Positions 1 to 37,952 of a DNA stretch of 64,000 nucleotides are shown one piece after another (the first letter of the stretch is position 1; every line of letters starts with the position of its first letter). The position numbers and the translations under genes are program-made. The notes below the pieces were generated by a model, which made no database searches, was not told the DNA's origin, and saw only the letters and a list, made by a program, of their open reading frames with translations. This stretch comes from Candidatus Poribacteria bacterium (GTDB taxonomy: Bacteria; Poribacteria; WGA-4E; WGA-3G): contig OZ240248.1 in NCBI GenBank assembly GCA_965198235.1, positions 2,912,001 to 2,976,000 on the forward strand, written 5' to 3'.

Positions 1-1946
1 TTGCCAGATTCTTTCGGCACAAACGAACCCGTGAACAACCCCATCGCATCTCCTTCACCCGGCTGCAGTCGGATTGTTTGTGTTTTACCCGAAGGCGAAA
101 TCGTCTGCACAACAACCGATCCTTTATCCAACGGACTGCCCAACGGATCGTTCACATTGGCGTTTAACATCACTGTATCATCGACGTGTGGTCGATCTGG
201 CGAATAAAACAACCGCATCGATTCGCCTTGTGCCATCTGCCGACGATACGCCATCCACCGGGCGACCTGACTCCAAAAGCGGTAGTGGTACTTATCCTCA
301 ACACCTTGCCGCCAACGCCATGCGCTATCTGTTCCCATAAACAACACTTTACCTGCACCGTACGTTTTGGTCACAATGAGCGGTACTCGTCCGGAAGCCG
401 TTGCGACCTCGTCATGCACCGCTAAAGTCTCTGTACCCGCCTTGGCTCGTTTGACCCCAGCGTACCAGTAGAAGCCGGGCAACGTGCGCCACACTTGGCG
501 GTTGATCTCCGTAGTTTCTCCGAGGCGAGTTAATAAACTTCGTTGTCCCAGCTGTGTGAGCGCGAAATATCCCAGTGTACCTGATCCAACACCATACGGG
601 GTCGCAGCGTCCAAAACCACAGGATAGAGATCCGCAAGCGGACCGGACATCAACGAATCATGCATCCCGGTACGTCCCGGCATAAAGACAAGCCCAGAAG
701 CCTGAGCACTGACCAGCTGCCGTAAGTCCCGTGTTTGTTCAACTGTTAACTGTTTCTCTTCGACACCGACATCACCAAGGAACACCACGTCGTAGCGGCT
801 TAGTTCGTTCGTCGTCGGGAAGTTTTTGATATACCTACGTCCTCCGCCGACCTTGGGTAGTTTCGGATGAAAAAGTAGACATGTCAATTCAACCCCGGGA
901 TCCCGTTCCAATGCGTTGCGCAGATAGCGGTACTCCCATCGTGGGTAGGATTCGACGACAAGGACTTTCAATTGTTCCTTGCGCACCGATATCGGCACAG
1001 AAATCTCATTGTTTTCCGGGATTAATTCCTGTGTGTCTCGCGGAATACGCATCGTTAGCGTGTAGTCACCAACTGCTGGTGGTGTCCAGATCATGTTCTC
1101 TTGCGCCTGGCTCATAGCGGGGACACGAATCAGCTTAGTAACCGTTGACTTCTTATTGACACTGAGGGTAACACTTACGTCCCGGTCCTGACCCAAGGTG
1201 CTGCGAACGACAAACGGAATACGAAGCTGCTTATTGGCAACCGCATAAGTCGGGGCATCCATACTAACCAATTCAAGGTCAGGTAACGGCACTTTACTGC
1301 CCACTCCAACCGCGAAAACGGGGATTCCTCTCATCCGAAACCGTGTAGCCGCCTCAACAGGTGAGTTACCGATATTCCAGTCCCCGTCCGACAATAGCAC
1401 GACACCGCGAAGGTTTGCGTGAGTGTCTAAAACCTGCGACAGTCCGGCGTTCAAATCTGTCGCTTCCTCCGCCGGATCTAACTGTGAAGAGAACGGTTCA
1501 AACACCACACTGAGGGCACTGGCATCCGAAGGCTTCCAAACCTCCTCAGACATCAGAGGTTGAATCGTCTCCGCGCGGCTTTTCGGGTCTCTTCGGTCAA
1601 GGTCTTGTGCTTGACCATCAACTCGTGCGTTTGAAAATGTGGAATCCGAGTTGATGGTCAAAACTACATCCCGCGTTTTCATACTGTTAGATTTGTCCCA
1701 AAGCACGGCGAGGGTGGAGCGCCGATCTGGTAGTTGCGTTTGCAACCATTCGGGTTGATTCAGGGTTACAACGACCAAACAAATCAACACAAAGCGCAGC
1801 AACTCAAGTGCCCCGGTCTTCTTGCTATAACCGCTGCGATGCCACGCCAACCAGCACAATATGCCTGCCACAATTATGATAACCAAGCTCAAACCTAAGA
1901 AGGTTCCGCTTGAGAAAAATTCAAGATTTCCCTGCTGTTCCTGCAT
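1..1946 (-). CDS. Membrane-anchored vWA-domain protein of the MoxR/DUF58/BatA cluster (runs off the window edge)
   Basis: Not in the ORF track because it has no stop in the window. Manual translation from ATG 1946 gives MQEQQGNLEFFSSGTFLGLSLVIIIVAGILCWLAW...LAVLWDKSNSM (two TM helices, MIDAS-like DxSxS), later VLLSDGDWN. Confidence 0.8.
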   Translation of the reverse strand, partial: MQEQQGNLEFFSSGTFLGLSLVIIIVAGILCWLAWHRSGYSKKTGALELLRFVLICLVVVTLNQPEWLQTQLPDRRSTLAVLWDKSNSMKTRDVVLTINSDSTFSNARVDGQAQDLDRRDPKSRAETIQPLMSEEVWKPSDASALSVVFEPFSSQLDPAEEATDLNAGLSQVLDTHANLRGVVLLSDGDWNIGNSPVEAATRFRMRGIPVFAVGVGSKVPLPDLELVSMDAPTYAVANKQLRIPFVVRSTLGQDRDVSVTLSVNKKSTVTKLIRVPAMSQAQENMIWTPPAVGDYTLTMRIPRDTQELIPENNEISVPISVRKEQLKVLVVESYPRWEYRYLRNALERDPGVELTCLLFHPKLPKVGGGRRYIKNFPTTNELSRYDVVFLGDVGVEEKQLTVEQTRDLRQLVSAQASGLVFMPGRTGMHDSLMSGPLADLYPVVLDAATPYGVGSGTLGYFALTQLGQRSLLTRLGETTEINRQVWRTLPGFYWYAGVKRAKAGTETLAVHDEVATASGRVPLIVTKTYGAGKVLFMGTDSAWRWRQGVEDKYHYRFWSQVARWMAYRRQMAQGESMRLFYSPDRPHVDDTVMLNANVNDPLGSPLDKGSVVVQTISPSGKTQTIRLQPGEGDAMGLFTGSFVPKESG

Positions 1947-32854: not shown

Positions 32855-35293
32855 TCAATTGTCCTTTGTGCCACGTCGCAACCGGAACGGATCACTCTTG
32901 ACGATCTCTGTAATCAGCACAGAGCTTCTATAACCTCTGGCTTCAAGTTGTGCAACGATCCTGTCAACGATCGATCGGTCATAATATTCCAATCCTCTAC
33001 CTAAAGCATAGATTAACATTTTCTCTGTCAAACAGCGTAGGAATTGCTGTTTTCTGTCCTTGACGACCTGTTTCAGGTCGGCTACGCCGTGCAATACTGT
33101 TCCGTCTGGCAATTCCGCGGTTGTATCAATATCCAATTCGCCATCTTTCCACCGAAAAGCCCCAATCGCGTTGTAGTTTTCGAGTGCGAATCCGATTGGG
33201 TCCATTTTCGCATGACAGTTGGCACATGCGGGGTCTGCTCGGTGTTGCTCAAGCCGTTCACGTAGTGTACTCCCGTGAACCGCCTCACCCTCTTCTTCCA
33301 ATTCCGGGACATCTGGTGGCGGTGGTGGTGGTGGTGTACCGAGTATCTGTTCCAGAACCCAACGCCCCCTTTTGACGGGAGAGGTGCGCGTTGGGTTAGA
33401 AGTCACCGTCAAGACGCTGGCATGGCTAAGAATCCCACCACGCGAGGTACTCTGCAGCTTGACCCGTTGAAACGATCTGCCTTTAATCGCTTCGCCGCCG
33501 GGAACGATGTTCTTTTGTCCTCTCCAGTTTCCCTGTGTATCCATAATGCCGTAGTGATTTGCCAAGGGAGAATTGAGGAAAGTGTAATCGGCATCAATGA
33601 GGTCAAGTACACTCCGGTCTTCACGAAAGATTGATTCAAGAAAGAGTTCCGTCTCCTTTAACATGGCAGCGCGCAGTGCACCAGTGAATGTCGGAAATTG
33701 TTCGAGGTCGGGGGCAGCCGTTGTTAGTCGTTGGATTTGAAGCCATTGGGTTCCGAAATTACGGCCCAATTCGGATGCTTTCGGATCTGCCAACATGCGT
33801 TTAACTTGCGACTCCAGATTGGCAGTGAGTTGCTTCTTCCCAGCGAGTTCAAGGAGTTCGTCATCTGGCATGCTGCTCCACAAGAAGTAGGAGAGCCGAG
33901 AAGCGAGTTGAAACTCATCAATCGGATACGATTCTGAACGCTGTGGACGGTCGTCCAACTCCAACCGAAATAGGAACTTCGGTGAACAAAGAATGACTTT
34001 AATCGCCTCTTGAATGCCCGCTTCCCACGGCGCGCCATCCGCTTGAACTGATGCTACAAACTGTGTGAGTTGTTCCACTTCGTTTTCGGTGGGTGGACGA
34101 CGATAGCCGCGCCGAAGCAAACGCGTTAGCACTTCACGGGTCTGTTCTGCTTGGGAGATATCAGGTATGCACGCCAGAATTTCAAAATGAGAATCGGGTC
34201 TGGTTTCTAATGGTCCCTCTGCCCAGAGCGTGCGAATCTGGAGTTTAGCATGCGGTTCACCTTCTATTGGCTTAAGCATCGCAATACCGACTTTTTCAAT
34301 GTTAGGAATACCGGTCATAAGGAATTCAATTGTCTGTCTTTTTTCGTCATCGCGGGCGGTAATCTCAAAAGCCTTCAAAACCTTGATATTATTGTCTACC
34401 GTAGGATCTATGCCAACTAAGCGTGCGAGTTTCTCCGGTGGGGTCGTCTCCTCCAATTTGTCACCCTGAATGAATAAAGCGACTTCCACGGGTGTTTCGC
34501 TGTCCGTTTCGGCGTAAAGTGTTGCGCGGTAGACGATTTCTGCATCGGGAGATATCTTGAAATATGTCGCTCCCGTTGTAAAGGGACCAGATTTCCATGT
34601 TTCTGTGGCGGTTGGATCGAGCAGGCGGTAACGTTCATCAGGGACATCATCGTGGCGCGGATCAAGACGATTACCATTTTGGTAACGTTTGGAGGGTGGT
34701 GGTGGTGCCAACAAGATAACACGCGTGGCGATTGCCTCCGCGGCTTCAAGGTAACGCTCCATTAGAAGCGGTGACATCGTGAGCACATCACCGATATTAT
34801 CAAATCCGTGTCCGACATCATCTGCAGGAAAATTTTCGGTCGGGTTGAAATCAACTCCGAGTAGGTCTCGGACGGTATTCTTGTATTCGACTTTATTGAG
34901 TCGGCGGACCGTTACTCGTCCAGGGTCTGGCTTAGCCATGCGATCCGCATGTTCAAAGATCGCTTCAATGTGCGCAACAAAAGATTCCGACACTTCCATC
35001 GGCGGTTGATCGCTGTCCGATGGTGGCATCTGACCTGTCGTTAGCATGTCCAGAACCCGTTCCCAGATGTCCCGGTTTCCAATTAACGAGTGATTGTCCG
35101 TGAATGAATCCAAGGAGAGTTCGGCGGCAGGCTGATCACCGGCGTGACAACTAAAACAGTACTGTTCCAAGAACAAAGCACCATTTTGCGAAAAGTCGGA
35201 AGTGTCCTTTTCACCCGGGTTGGCAGTAAGTGCAACGAGCAGTAGCACTAAAATCAGACAAAAACATTGTGAGACATAATTGAGCGAAATCAT
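32855..35293 (-). CDS. DUF1592-type planctomycete cytochrome c protein (PSCyt/PSD domains)
   Basis: CFSCH and CANCH heme motifs, RRLNKVEY.NT, LASRLSYFLWSSMPD, RTSPVKRG.W. Confidence 0.93.
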   Translation of the reverse strand: MISLNYVSQCFCLILVLLLVALTANPGEKDTSDFSQNGALFLEQYCFSCHAGDQPAAELSLDSFTDNHSLIGNRDIWERVLDMLTTGQMPPSDSDQPPMEVSESFVAHIEAIFEHADRMAKPDPGRVTVRRLNKVEYKNTVRDLLGVDFNPTENFPADDVGHGFDNIGDVLTMSPLLMERYLEAAEAIATRVILLAPPPPSKRYQNGNRLDPRHDDVPDERYRLLDPTATETWKSGPFTTGATYFKISPDAEIVYRATLYAETDSETPVEVALFIQGDKLEETTPPEKLARLVGIDPTVDNNIKVLKAFEITARDDEKRQTIEFLMTGIPNIEKVGIAMLKPIEGEPHAKLQIRTLWAEGPLETRPDSHFEILACIPDISQAEQTREVLTRLLRRGYRRPPTENEVEQLTQFVASVQADGAPWEAGIQEAIKVILCSPKFLFRLELDDRPQRSESYPIDEFQLASRLSYFLWSSMPDDELLELAGKKQLTANLESQVKRMLADPKASELGRNFGTQWLQIQRLTTAAPDLEQFPTFTGALRAAMLKETELFLESIFREDRSVLDLIDADYTFLNSPLANHYGIMDTQGNWRGQKNIVPGGEAIKGRSFQRVKLQSTSRGGILSHASVLTVTSNPTRTSPVKRGRWVLEQILGTPPPPPPPDVPELEEEGEAVHGSTLRERLEQHRADPACANCHAKMDPIGFALENYNAIGAFRWKDGELDIDTTAELPDGTVLHGVADLKQVVKDRKQQFLRCLTEKMLIYALGRGLEYYDRSIVDRIVAQLEARGYRSSVLITEIVKSDPFRLRRGTKDN

Positions 35294-35311
35294 CAGCTTC
35301 TTCAGGCTTTC

Positions 35312-36379
35312 CTATATTTGAAATGTGAGTGGTAAGGCAATATTTTCTTGCTTTACAATGGGTTGTTTAGATATAGGTTTATATCTAAAGTTAAGGCGTT
35401 TCAGTATTTTGCAGTCCGATACTTTTGCGGAAAGTGTCAGACGTTTGCCGCCTTCCACGGGTTGTAAACTCACCCCGTCTTTTTGGTGACCACATATCAC
35501 AGCAAGACCATGCTTGATATGCTTTACCAGTGTACCTTTGGTATATCCGAGGCATCTCGTGCCGCCATATCGCGGTCTTTTGCCGCCCTTTCTGGGCAGC
35601 TCCCTGTGTAGATTGCGTCTTTGTATAGATATAGGCGATATACAAAATATATCTGCATTATCCACATAAGGATTGCCGCCTACCACATGATATGCCAAGC
35701 ACCAACTATCCACACAATGTGCCTCAAAGACTTCAGCAGTCTTATTAGAGGACTTCTTCAAGCCAAGCGAGTCGCGTATATCTTTCGTTTCATGTCCCTG
35801 AAGTGTGAGCAACTCCCACTTCTTTCGGATTTCGCTATAGAACCATTCCTTGCCCACTTCAAGGGGGCTGAATGACTGGTTCCACTTCTTTTGATGCTTC
35901 TTGGTTCTTGCCTTAATATCTTCCACACATACTTGTGTGATTGGATACAGATTGGACAGCCAATCTAATATGTGCAGTTTCCAGTTCCACCTTCCACGCG
36001 TGCCAGCAGGGATGCGTTGCTTGTTAGTGAGTCTATTCATACGGTTCTTTCTATTGGGACACTTGCGTGAACGCCTGGACCTACGCAACTCTCGCCTTTT
36101 CGCAATCTTCTTGCCCACTTTGTTATGGGCATCGGCTTGAACATTCAGGTAAGTATGTTTCTCAGACTTCACTGTGAAACCTTCCTTTTTACTGCCAGGA
36201 TCCACACCAACCGCAATGTCCTGAGTATCTCTATCTGAAGGTTCCTTGTTAAGCCTTATACAAAATATGCCATTGTTAAAATAAGGTGTTGCTGCGCCAC
36301 GCTGAATAAGTTTCCTGGCACGCGAGGCATGCATTGGCATCAATTGCTGACCATCCTTCGATTTTACAGGTACTAACAT
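35312..36379 (-). CDS. isrB: IsrB, RNA-guided OMEGA nickase (RRXRR protein, split RuvC, no HNH)
   Basis: PLMP domain (GQQLMP...RARKL), RuvC-I GVDPGSK, Arg-rich bridge helix RRELRRSRR, RuvC-II CVEDIK, RuvC-III AHCVDS. 355 aa with no CxxC/HNH. Confidence 0.82.
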   Translation of the reverse strand: MLVPVKSKDGQQLMPMHASRARKLIQRGAATPYFNNGIFCIRLNKEPSDRDTQDIAVGVDPGSKKEGFTVKSEKHTYLNVQADAHNKVGKKIAKRRELRRSRRSRKCPNRKNRMNRLTNKQRIPAGTRGRWNWKLHILDWLSNLYPITQVCVEDIKARTKKHQKKWNQSFSPLEVGKEWFYSEIRKKWELLTLQGHETKDIRDSLGLKKSSNKTAEVFEAHCVDSWCLAYHVVGGNPYVDNADIFCISPISIQRRNLHRELPRKGGKRPRYGGTRCLGYTKGTLVKHIKHGLAVICGHQKDGVSLQPVEGGKRLTLSAKVSDCKILKRLNFRYKPISKQPIVKQENIALPLTFQI

Positions 36380-36590
36380 AAGTTTACATCTCCTTCTCAG
36401 GGTGTGTGCTTCCCCATCGAGATCGCGGAACCAGAGAGGATATAGACTTGAGGAGCATCCAATACCATCTTGTTGACTGCCACGCCAAGGTCCGCGATAT
36501 TTTACTCTATTCAGATTCTCACGTTGCAGGGTCCCCGCTTGGCTGCGGATATTCTAACAATCTCCAGTCTTTAGACTGGAGTATCTGAAT
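35312..36590 (-). mobile_element. Non-autonomous IS200/IS605-superfamily (isrB) element; right end uncertain
   Basis: isrB plus upstream scaffold with a subterminal hairpin at 36562-36581 and a candidate right-end hairpin at 35366-35389. No tnpA in the window. Confidence 0.6.
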
Positions 36591-36610
36591 CGTATGCTTC
36601 CCGAACTATG
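36385..36610 (-). ncRNA. omegaRNA (5' guide ~36610-36591, then scaffold)
   Basis: Nested stems: ATTCAGAT/ATCTGAAT (36590-36583 with 36516-36509), CTCCAGTCT/AGACTGGAG, ATCGCGGA/TCCGCGAT (36498-36491 with 36429-36422). The GGATGCTCCTCAAGTC loop can pair with downstream TCGATGGGGAAG as a pseudoknot, resembling known IscB/IsrB omegaRNA motifs. Confidence 0.72.
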
Positions 36611-36676
36611 GAACTAAGGTTTTGCTTTCTTGTGAAAACGTTTCGTTTGGTTATAAGTTTACGCTAATATGCAACC

Positions 36677-36706
36677 ATTATATCTCAGTATGAAGCCTAA
36701 AGGCAA
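36677..36706 (-). promoter_or_regulatory. sigma70-type promoter reading into omegaRNA-isrB-DUF1592
   Basis: TTGCCT-N18-TATAAT on the minus strand. Confidence 0.5.
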
Positions 36707-36881
36707 ATAAAAACCCACTAAATACGGGATTATTTAGTTTTCTGAACAGAATTTGCGCTTTATGGTCAATTCTGCTAAAATAGCGGCGTTAGAAACAGCA
36801 AGATTCCAAGCGACTGTCCACGTGTCCTTCTCACCCAACGCATCTAAATGTGTTGAAAACGCTATAGGAGTATCTCCAGCC

Positions 36882-37952
36882 ATGAATCGACACGAACAAG
36901 AAGCAATTGTGAACGCAGCAGCGTTGCAAACCGTCTGTAGCCAACTTTACCAAAAAGTAGGCGTTGCTCAATCAGATGCTGATACCGTCGCAGAAATGCA
37001 AGTCCTGATGGATTTACGCGGCGTTCATTCGCACGCGACACGCGCCGTCCCGCGTTATGTTCGCGGTATCATCAACGGTGATATAAATCCTAATCCACAA
37101 CTTCAAAGGCTTGAAGACAACGCCGCTTCTGTCTTGTTAGATGGCGACCGCGGATTGGGGCATCTCGTCGGTGTCCGTGCAATGAACATCGCCGTTGAAA
37201 AAGCGAAGTCGGCTTCGATTGGCGTGGCGATTGTTCGGAATAGCAATCACTTCGGGGCTGCTTCCAGCCATGCGATGCGAGCCACGGAACACGATATGAT
37301 CGGTTTCGCAACCACTAACGGACTCGGTGTGAATGTCGCTGTCTTCGGCGCAAGAAGCACTTCGATCGGGAATAATGCGCTCTCCTTTGCCGTCCCCGCC
37401 GGTGAAGAGCCGCCGATCGTATTGGATATGGCGTGTGGTGCTGCCGCCGCTGGGCGGATTGGTACCGCGAGGTTATATCAAGAAAAAATCCCGTTGGGAT
37501 GGGCACTGGACGCAGATGGCAATGAAACCGATGACCCCGGGAAGGTTGCCGCTATCTTACCTGCCGCGGGTCCCAAAGGCTCTGCCTTGGCAATCGTGAT
37601 GGATGTCTTATGCGGTCCGTTGAGTGGTGGGCTGATGGGGATCAACAAGCATTATCAGCCTGGAGATGCACCACGAGAAAAACGCGTATCAGCACACTTT
37701 TTCTTCGCAATCAACATCGCCAGTTTCACTTCCATTGTAGAATTCAAAGCTGAGATTGACCGACAGATTCGGATGACACGTCAAGCCACCCCGCGTAGCG
37801 GATTTACGCGCGTCACCCTACCTGGCGAGATTGAATGGGAATTGACGCAAGAACGCCTCGCAAACGGGATTCCCCTCCACAGGGAACCATTGCAGGAGAT
37901 TGAGCGACTCGCTGACGAATTAGATATTGAAATTCCGTGGGACCGAGTGTAA
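36882..37952 (+). CDS. Ldh_2 family (malate/L-lactate/ureidoglycolate-type) dehydrogenase
   Basis: DLRGVHSH, RNSNHFG, GNNAL.FAVP, LDMA, GPKGSAL, LPGE. Start at the ATG after TAGGAG. Confidence 0.9.
   Translation: MNRHEQEAIVNAAALQTVCSQLYQKVGVAQSDADTVAEMQVLMDLRGVHSHATRAVPRYVRGIINGDINPNPQLQRLEDNAASVLLDGDRGLGHLVGVRAMNIAVEKAKSASIGVAIVRNSNHFGAASSHAMRATEHDMIGFATTNGLGVNVAVFGARSTSIGNNALSFAVPAGEEPPIVLDMACGAAAAGRIGTARLYQEKIPLGWALDADGNETDDPGKVAAILPAAGPKGSALAIVMDVLCGPLSGGLMGINKHYQPGDAPREKRVSAHFFFAINIASFTSIVEFKAEIDRQIRMTRQATPRSGFTRVTLPGEIEWELTQERLANGIPLHREPLQEIERLADELDIEIPWDRV

Follow-up and report, generated by a model that had tools for sequence, protein, structure and literature searches.

The locus analysed here, at 36589-35294 on the minus strand of a 64,000-nucleotide (nt) stretch of DNA (the window, by which we mean the whole stretch), resembles the ISC transposons and the OMEGA nucleases IscB and IsrB. 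According to the text of Kapitonov et al. (2016, PMC4810608), ISC transposons have an N|ATGA target and a GT.. terminus, with TnpB on the opposite strand. For the IsrB of Desulfovirgula thermocuniculi (DtIsrB, 8DMB), the text of Hirano et al. (2022, PMC9581776) gives a target-adjacent motif (TAM) of NTGA, and of TTGA at 60 °C. GstIscB uses TTCAT, located 5' of the left end (LE) and reading ATGAA on the IscB strand (Meers et al. 2023, bioRxiv 10.1101/2023.03.14.532601). We conclude, with a probability of about 0.85, that our locus is an ISC1-type IS200/IS605 element, non-autonomous and 1296 bp long, which comprises a complete IsrB with its cognate omegaRNA and most likely persists as an immobile passenger. 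Judged by its sequence, it is an ordinary complete member of the known IsrB family (ISC1/IsrB, N|ATGA target), which consists of small RNA-guided DNA nickases that are carried by transposons and akin to the ancestor of Cas9. As an IsrB it adds little, since thousands of homologs exist; its value is that of a cleanly resolved example with exact ends, a 210-nt omegaRNA backed by covariation, and a predicted guide and TAM ready for assay.

35294..36589, minus strand: whole non-autonomous IS200/IS605 (ISC1-type) element of 1296 bp, delimited by empty sites and a second resolved copy
35312..36379, minus strand: isrB open reading frame (ORF) of 355 amino acids (aa), with QLMP, the RuvC residues D60/E153/H221/D224, a bridge helix at ~87-103 and a TAM-interacting domain with R313 and L316

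The domains of DtIsrB and the window IsrB are arranged alike (PLMP, split RuvC with bridge helix, TAM-interacting domain, no HNH), and the two proteins are of nearly equal size (353 vs 355 aa), at 31% identity and a template-modelling (TM) score of 0.77-0.83. The window protein differs in having L316 for Q326, QLMP for PLMP, and a C-terminal extension of 20 aa that is modelled with low confidence. Going by the text of PMC9581776, both loci have the omegaRNA upstream, a Shine-Dalgarno sequence in its terminal hairpin and an NTGA-type TAM, while the scaffold has 262 nt in DtIsrB and 210 nt in the window copy. The pseudoknots of the window copy, SL2-SL4 and SL5-linker, follow the group A topology and DtIsrB the group B1 topology, as these groups are worded in the text of that paper rather than drawn in its figures. 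The text of PMC4810608 describes ISC1-1_MA of Microcystis as being, like the copies in the genus studied here, non-autonomous, equipped with subterminal hairpins and inserted 5' of ATGA without duplication; ISC1 and the genus copies also have in common a 5' GTCA, present in most copies of the genus, and TnpB relatives on the opposite strand that share the end hairpins. The window copy departs from ISC1 in starting with TTCA, a covarying variant, and in lacking the 3' hairpin, and its host is a sponge-associated lineage whose nearest named proteins are from 'Candidatus Poribacteria'. GstIscB with ISGst5 is alike in its guide on the right-end side, a TAM that equals the TnpA target 5' of LE, TnpA supplied in trans and a donor-joint homing model. 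Unlike IsrB, which is a nickase, GstIscB has an HNH and makes double-strand breaks, and nick homing is not reported for IsrB in the literature found. Like ours, the HEARO/IscB omegaRNA precedes an RRXRR-family nuclease and has a 5' guide; the difference is that the window scaffold is without an Rfam match at E ≤ 10.

The isrB ORF reads from ATG to TAG without a frameshift or stop. A Pfam scan of the 355-aa protein assigned a single family, RRXRR (PF14239; E 3.7e-32, residues 3-164), and returned no HNH, a domain that the same scan detects in the 621-aa IscB of this genome; E153 and H221 are separated by only 67 residues. The top match of phmmer among PDB sequences was DtIsrB (8dmb_P; E 6.7e-37, residues 3-314), and the IscB sequences in PDB matched residues 3-114 only. 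GVDPG (D60), VEDIK (E153) and HCVD (H221, D224) align with motifs I, II and III of the DtIsrB RuvC, and an arginine-rich bridge helix is located at ~87-103. In an alignment of 30 homologs of 33-78% identity, D60, H221, D224 and R313 are at least 90% conserved and E153 is invariant. An AF2 model built from this alignment had a mean pLDDT of 85.0 and a pTM of 0.83, with residues 338-355 alone below pLDDT 50. Foldseek ranked 8dmb_P first in PDB (E 2.1e-27, TM 0.77/0.83, 31% identity), followed by IscBs and then RuvC resolvases, so the best fold match is an IsrB and not an IscB. The NCBIfam model guided_IscB scored 92 bits against a cut-off of 175 and covered residues 5-164 only, as expected for an HNH-less relative, and this score was not counted toward membership. 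By these comparisons, we assign the ORF as a full-length DtIsrB homolog that has the RuvC catalytic residues and is without HNH.

The initial annotation, made from the letters of the window, had already described the 355-aa ORF, its three RuvC motifs, the bridge helix and the absence of HNH, all of which stand after the profile searches; the modelled structure likewise places it next to IsrB, with RuvC folds among the matches. The PLMP it listed corresponds to the N-terminal RRXRR region, but the literal motif reads QLMP in the window copy, and I, K, Q or P occupy the first position in other paralogs. One search for homologs gave 3246 matches, and another gave 1282 representative clusters. Among paralogs the nonsynonymous divergence (dN) was 0.14-0.33 and the synonymous divergence (dS) was saturated in nine of ten pairs, so that only the qualitative reading, dN far below dS, was retained.

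The RNA upstream of the gene carries the second part of the argument. Its features are as follows.

36380..36589, minus strand: omegaRNA scaffold of 210 nt (RNAalifold with pair counts, covariance model)
36589-36583/36516-36510, minus strand: scaffold helix S1
36581-36574/36569-36562, minus strand: scaffold helix of stem-loop (SL) 1, which doubles as the transposon-end hairpin
36560-36524, minus strand: scaffold helix SL2
36507-36489/36432-36419, minus strand: scaffold helix S2
36488-36473, minus strand: scaffold helix SL4
36461-36443, minus strand: scaffold helix SL5
36401-36392, minus strand: terminal hairpin, which holds the Shine-Dalgarno sequence
36479..36543, minus strand: pseudoknot 1, SL2 loop GCCA (36543-36540) with SL4 loop UGGC (36482-36479)
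36412..36453, minus strand: pseudoknot 2, SL5 loop CCUC (36453-36450) with GGGG (36415-36412)

The genome has 12 protein-level matches to IsrB, namely six full-length or nearly full-length copies (one with two stops), fragments and one IscB, and the DNA upstream of isrB recurs in it at ~70-84% identity. Eight paralogous scaffolds could be aligned end to end with MAFFT, and RNAalifold predicted 51 pairs for them, 29 of which show compensatory changes. A covariance model built from the eight found 141 matches in 19 of the 21 genomes of the genus. In 35 model-aligned copies, 91.6% of the cells are paired and 37 of 59 pairs have changed on both sides, the 59-pair structure including two pseudoknots added by hand. 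This alignment was fitted to the covariance model and so favours the structure, a bias of which the MAFFT alignment of eight paralogs is free. None of 500 shuffles matched the 35-copy structure on any measure, and sliding the 3' partners by 1-3 columns left 35-44% of the cells paired, with a covariation score of 0.05-0.09 against the observed 0.371. Pseudoknot 1 covaries (column 55:132 is GC in 22, AU in 8, GU in 3 and other in 2 of the 35 copies), and pseudoknot 2 (CCYC/GGGG) is paired in 100% of the cells with wobble changes only and no compensatory ones. All 59 consensus pairs are standard in the window copy.

Three perfect stems had been reported in the 210 nt upstream of the gene (TTCAGAT/ATCTGAA, CTCCAGTC/GACTGGAG and CCGC/GCGG), and all of them exist in the window copy. 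The suspected pseudoknot has become two, one of them covarying, and covariation among homologous loci was found in both alignments. The support for the structure comes from this covariation and not from single-sequence folding, and it identifies the 210 nt, by comparison of copies, as an omegaRNA with a conserved multi-helix fold and two pseudoknots.

One claim about the RNA did not hold. On account of its closing stem, ATTCAGAT/ATCTGAAT, the initial annotation had regarded the scaffold as divergent, possibly a distinct subfamily with its own TAM. The closing helix of the guide-adaptor region is TTCAGAT/ATCTGAA in the window copy and GTCAGTG/CATTGAC or GTCAAC/GTTGTC in paralogs of the same genome, and compensatory changes occur at four of the seven pairs of this helix in the 35 copies. 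The stem is one covarying state of a helix; because it covaries with the GTCAAC form among same-genome paralogs, it gives no evidence of a subfamily. We thus read it as no mark of a separate family or of a new TAM, and the flank of the element is ATGA, which is the known N|ATGA target.

The ends of the element were set by an empty-site search with 34300-37800 against 30 relatives. The two flanks adjoin directly in four sister species (G018, G014, G012 and G006). On the IsrB strand, the empty sites read ...GCATAC-TC-ATGATTTC in three species and ...GCATAC-GA-ATGATTTC in G006, and the occupied site reads ...GCATACGA[TTCAG...GAAGAAGCTG]ATGATTTC. Taken alone, the window site gives an insert of 1296 nt with an ambiguity of 2 nt. 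A second copy, c1585, removes this ambiguity when compared with G006 (...CCCGAACA|ATGATATT against ...TCCAGACA|[GTCAAC...GGTTTTG]|ATGATATT): the element starts at the T/G of TTCA/GTCA and ends in ...TG, and its limits in the window are 36589-35294. Homology to the paralogs begins at 36589/36590, and the insertion lies between ...GCAUACGA and ATGA, without target duplication.

35290..35293, minus strand: flank ATGA, transposon target and predicted TAM, its ATG being the start codon of the 812-aa gene at 32855..35293
36590..36609, minus strand: predicted 20-nt guide AUAGUUCGGGAAGCAUACGA, flank DNA adjoining the element boundary, the final 20 nt of the 5' leader of the host gene

ATGA was found at positions 12-30 past the hairpin in 14 of 16 distinct hairpin-bearing copies by 4-mer counting, and it follows 61 of 66 left-end matches of a trimmed hidden Markov model in the genus; up to 35 of these 66 left ends had been chosen for ATGA when the model was trained, so that the independent figure is ~26/31. 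The bases that precede ATGA vary among the copies (TTTTG, TTG, TAG, CAG, AAGAG), and therefore ATGA belongs to the flank. It agrees with the N|ATGA target of ISC transposons and with the NTGA/TTGA TAM of DtIsrB. Two other placements, an element that ends before a TTGA flank and boundaries at 36591-35296, were dropped after the c1585 empty site and the variable bases before ATGA had been seen. The copy c1585 itself (L004, G000:C1:1584114-1585381) sits within an ORF that is uninterrupted in G006 (L072) and by eye looks like a PIN-domain (VapC-like) gene.

The scaffold begins at the boundary defined by the empty sites, and the guide is predicted, as in the initial annotation, in the flank 5' of the scaffold. 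Its register is one base 3' of the one proposed there (36609-36590 in place of 36610-36591), and its length of 20 nt is borrowed from DtIsrB as given in the text of PMC9581776. The only perfect match of the guide in the genome is the one in situ, and since this is followed by TTCA, which is not a TAM, the occupied site is not a target. No common motif was found in the guide-side flanks of the copies.

The stretch is present in four sponge metatranscriptome runs of one study. Contigs from these RNA libraries with at least 99% identity cover 35494-36419 (the ORF), 36400-36656, 36440-36626 and 35169-35473, and attest to presence in the library, not to strand, ends or level. The contigs 36400-36656 and 36440-36626 span the scaffold, the guide and 36-66 nt beyond, and 35169-35473 bridges the end of the element into the downstream gene. 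The interval 36676-36749 is uncovered by the contigs of any of the four runs, with partial cover in three, and this gap is no evidence for a transcript start.

36677..36706, minus strand: promoter-like TTGCCT-18-TATAAT in the flank (sigma-70-like consensus scan, 10/12 matches)

This site is a weak candidate for the start of a guide-omegaRNA-isrB transcript, in which case it could be the promoter of the host gene itself; four promoter-like sites were found in the region against 3.0 expected. A Yfr10 match at 36698-36776 (minus strand; 26.1 bits with a gathering threshold of 43, E 0.45) overlaps a terminator-like hairpin with a T run (36714-36728, minus strand) just upstream of the promoter-like site, and is probably a terminator or a chance match.

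The reading of the TAM was examined through the residues that contact it. According to the text of PMC9581776, DtIsrB recognises G3 through R323 and A4 through Q326, and its Q326R variant also accepts G4. The equivalents in the window protein are R313, which is conserved, and L316, which departs from the Q/T majority at this position. Residues and flanks were tabulated for 67 C-terminal matches with a hairpin-anchored rule that favours ATG[AG] over ATAA but is blind to the residues; 21 matches were without a hairpin and two were ambiguous.

R..Q (313..316): flank ATGA in 19/19
R..T (313..316): flank ATGA in 18/18
R..R (313..316): flank ATGG in 3/3
Q..L (313..316): flank ATAA in 4/4

The window copy combines R..L with ATGA. 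Its TAM is predicted to be NTGA or to have a relaxed fourth position, and a modified TAM may be considered because L316 replaces the Q326 equivalent, not because of the closing stem. Among the paralogs, c734 (G000:C1:733539-734802) has two in-frame stops, R at the Q326 equivalent and the flank ATGG, and this combination of R and ATGG matches the phenotype of DtIsrB Q326R. If the pairing of residues and flanks is true, it represents a natural read-out code for retargeting the TAM of IsrB.

The same L316, together with QLMP, could indicate a decaying relic, in which ORF and RNA are intact merely for lack of time and the ribonucleoprotein no longer works. Signs of decay are evident in other copies of the genome, such as c734 with its two stops, four to five fragments and several ORF-less mini elements, and L316 lies off the Q/T majority. 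We nevertheless consider this unlikely: the catalytic residues are all present, the 59 RNA pairs are standard, the ORF has no frameshift or stop, and the variants in the RNA-library contigs (two synonymous, two missense) include none that is disruptive. Leucine also recurs in the Q..L clade, whose flank likewise has A at TAM position 4, and is thus not obviously disabling.

That the window copy is immobile was deduced from its TAM-side end.

35294..35311, minus strand: remnant of the TAM-side end (LE), GAAAGCCTGAAGAAGCTG, with the subterminal hairpin missing (by-eye alignment to c734, c4757, c4077 and c4528)

The paralogs c734, c4757, c4077 and c4528 carry CTCCATGC-TAAA-GCATGGAG at this end. 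Compared with them by eye, the window copy has lost ~35 nt with the left-end hairpin and kept ...AGGAA|AGCCTGAAGAAGCTG, so that a subterminal hairpin is present at the guide side (SL1) and absent at the TAM side. From work on IS608, Y1 transposases are known to bind a subterminal hairpin at each end of the element. Both the left-end hairpin and the outer stem covary across the 35 copies and therefore appear to matter. The text of Kapitonov et al. (PMC4810608) bears likewise on subterminal hairpins at both ends. As the TAM-side hairpin bound by Y1 transposases is lost, the window copy is probably no longer excisable.

A still mobile IsrB element, with a hairpin that is dispensable or replaced by another structure, would account for c4678, a copy at another locus with a similar hairpin-less end that is most easily explained by a moving hairpin-less progenitor; the gap common to both could reflect descent from such a mobile element or recurrent deletion across the palindrome. 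The insertion is moreover absent from at least four sister species and is thus not ancient. We regard continued mobility as quite improbable, however, because the covariation of hairpin and outer stem, at ends of which both are bound by Y1 transposases as far as the text of PMC4810608 bears on them, argues that they are needed, and 46 of the 67 copies with a C-terminal match have a recognisable hairpin (21 have none by this heuristic).

Several points weigh against our conclusion of a complete but immobile element. The minimum free energy of 36380-36620 as a single sequence is no better than that of shuffles (z -0.60), and Rfam 15 gave no matching family at E ≤ 10 for 35000-37200 beyond Yfr10. 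DNA carry-over into the RNA libraries is possible. Selection on the window copy after its insertion had no relative of >80% identity for comparison, and either L316 or QLMP might change or lower activity. That the hairpin is lost was read by eye against paralogs that are only ~72% identical, and the hairpin-less end of c4678 fits poorly with immobility unless the deletions were independent.

The position of the element relative to the downstream gene is peculiar. An 812-aa ORF (32855-35293, minus strand) begins with the ATG of the flanking ATGA; it is co-oriented with the element and starts 0 nt downstream of it. By its sequence features this ORF looks like a DUF1592-type protein with a cytochrome c domain, of a sort often met in Planctomycetes-like genomes, and the element now separates it from its native leader. 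Among 59 decidable left ends from the loci of the genus and the genome, 35 have at least 100 open codons from the ATG of ATGA, compared with 17.7% of all 41,895 ATGA sites in the genome (binomial 1e-12) or with ~24% under a stricter null of start-region and intergenic ATGA sites based on crude greedy ORF calls; the sample consists of distinct insertion sites, though of kindred copies from one genus, and the calls are heuristic. Of 29 long ORFs from relatives, 10 were analysed with Pfam, and in six of these position 1-2 of a family model aligns no later than residue 15 (Sulfatase twice, adh_short, Rimk_N, ArgJ and UvrD-helicase), and AGGAG-like words were seen by eye in several guide-side flanks. 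An orientation bias with the upstream gene has been described for IscB elements (Meers et al., bioRxiv 10.1101/2023.03.14.532601). A start-codon rule was not found stated in the literature searched, and 'start codon' occurs 0 times in PMC4810608 and PMC13565253. A 72-codon ORF (MIKDSPIVED...) follows the left end both in G011 (L062) and in G000 (G000:C1:4416853); either the insertion is orthologous or one start codon was hit repeatedly.

We tentatively propose, at slightly less than even odds, that the N|ATGA IsrB elements of the genus prefer host start codons in co-orientation, with the end of the leader and its Shine-Dalgarno sequence as guide and with TAM-reading residues that track the flank. 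If so, the promoter of the host would serve a guide that lies outside the element while the host ORF stays intact, the end of the element would become the new translation-initiation region of the gene, and the hairpin-less window copy would be a frozen insertion. Start-codon insertion and the co-variation of residues and flanks, two patterns derived by heuristics from a single genus, may be of interest to OMEGA biology and to the engineering of TAM specificity.

Its place exactly between host leader and start codon, in co-orientation, and the RNA-library contig across the junction of element and gene would also suit an exapted copy, in which IsrB and omegaRNA in the leader of the DUF1592-like gene serve the host, e.g., by coupling or regulation; the text of PMC9581776 adds that the PLMP domain of DtIsrB is in contact with that hairpin of the cognate RNA which holds the Shine-Dalgarno sequence. 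Such a role seems very unlikely to us, as 35 of 59 ordinary mobile copies are placed alike, so that the placement calls for no host function, the catalytic residues are kept, unlike in nuclease-dead domesticated relatives, and a guide of mRNA sense cannot pair with the mRNA.

For the element as an IsrB with its cognate omegaRNA, a transcript from the flank, probably from the promoter of the host gene, would supply a ~20-nt guide (36609-36590) fused to the scaffold. Its target would be the empty donor joint that remains once TnpA, supplied in trans from the Y1 genes of the genome, has excised the element, and a nick there would favour restoration of the element by recombination, following the homing model of Meers et al. 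The window copy would now be fixed in the downstream gene's leader, as a passenger that still codes and is transcribed along with that gene.

The genome has six Y1 TnpA genes (PF01797), none of them beside an IsrB. TnpA, TnpB and IsrB elements have C-rich/TAAA hairpins in common, and paired hairpins (C-rich stem, TAAA or TGAA loop) bound two TnpA genes and ~13 elements of 1.4 kb. The two TnpA elements with related hairpins are at 4380189-4381983 and 4791485-4793279 (G000:C1). The IS605-type elements of ~1.4 kb (e.g., G000:C1 230864-232286, 58854-60263 and 4602752-4604178) have CCCAAxCC-TAAA hairpins and ends in ...TTAGATAA or TTGATAA, and the one examined (L073) encodes TnpB on the strand opposite to that of IsrB. 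The hairpin is 8-9 nt away from the boundary on the guide side and ~17-21 nt on the ATGA side; together with the orientation of Meers et al., this geometry identifies the guide side as the right end and ATGA as the target at the left end. SL1 of the omegaRNA is similar to the left-end hairpin of the same element, and this likeness fits the remark in the text of Hirano et al. (2022, PMC9581776) that nicking does not require SL1, which may have a role in mobility.

Several mini elements without an ORF (G000:C1 2377105-2377470, 4757285-4757745, 4077017-4077203, 1070728-1071182 and 4416411-4416853) have a full or partial scaffold, a left-end hairpin and an ATGA/ATGG flank, and may represent stand-alone guides comparable to palindrome-associated transposable elements (PATE-like). 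Two such mini elements contain an insertion of ~35-40 nt in the scaffold. The 621-aa IscB with RRXRR and HNH (Pfam; L011:28-1893, minus strand, corresponding to G000:C1:1472438-1474303) belongs to a separate OMEGA system and is far longer than typical IscBs.

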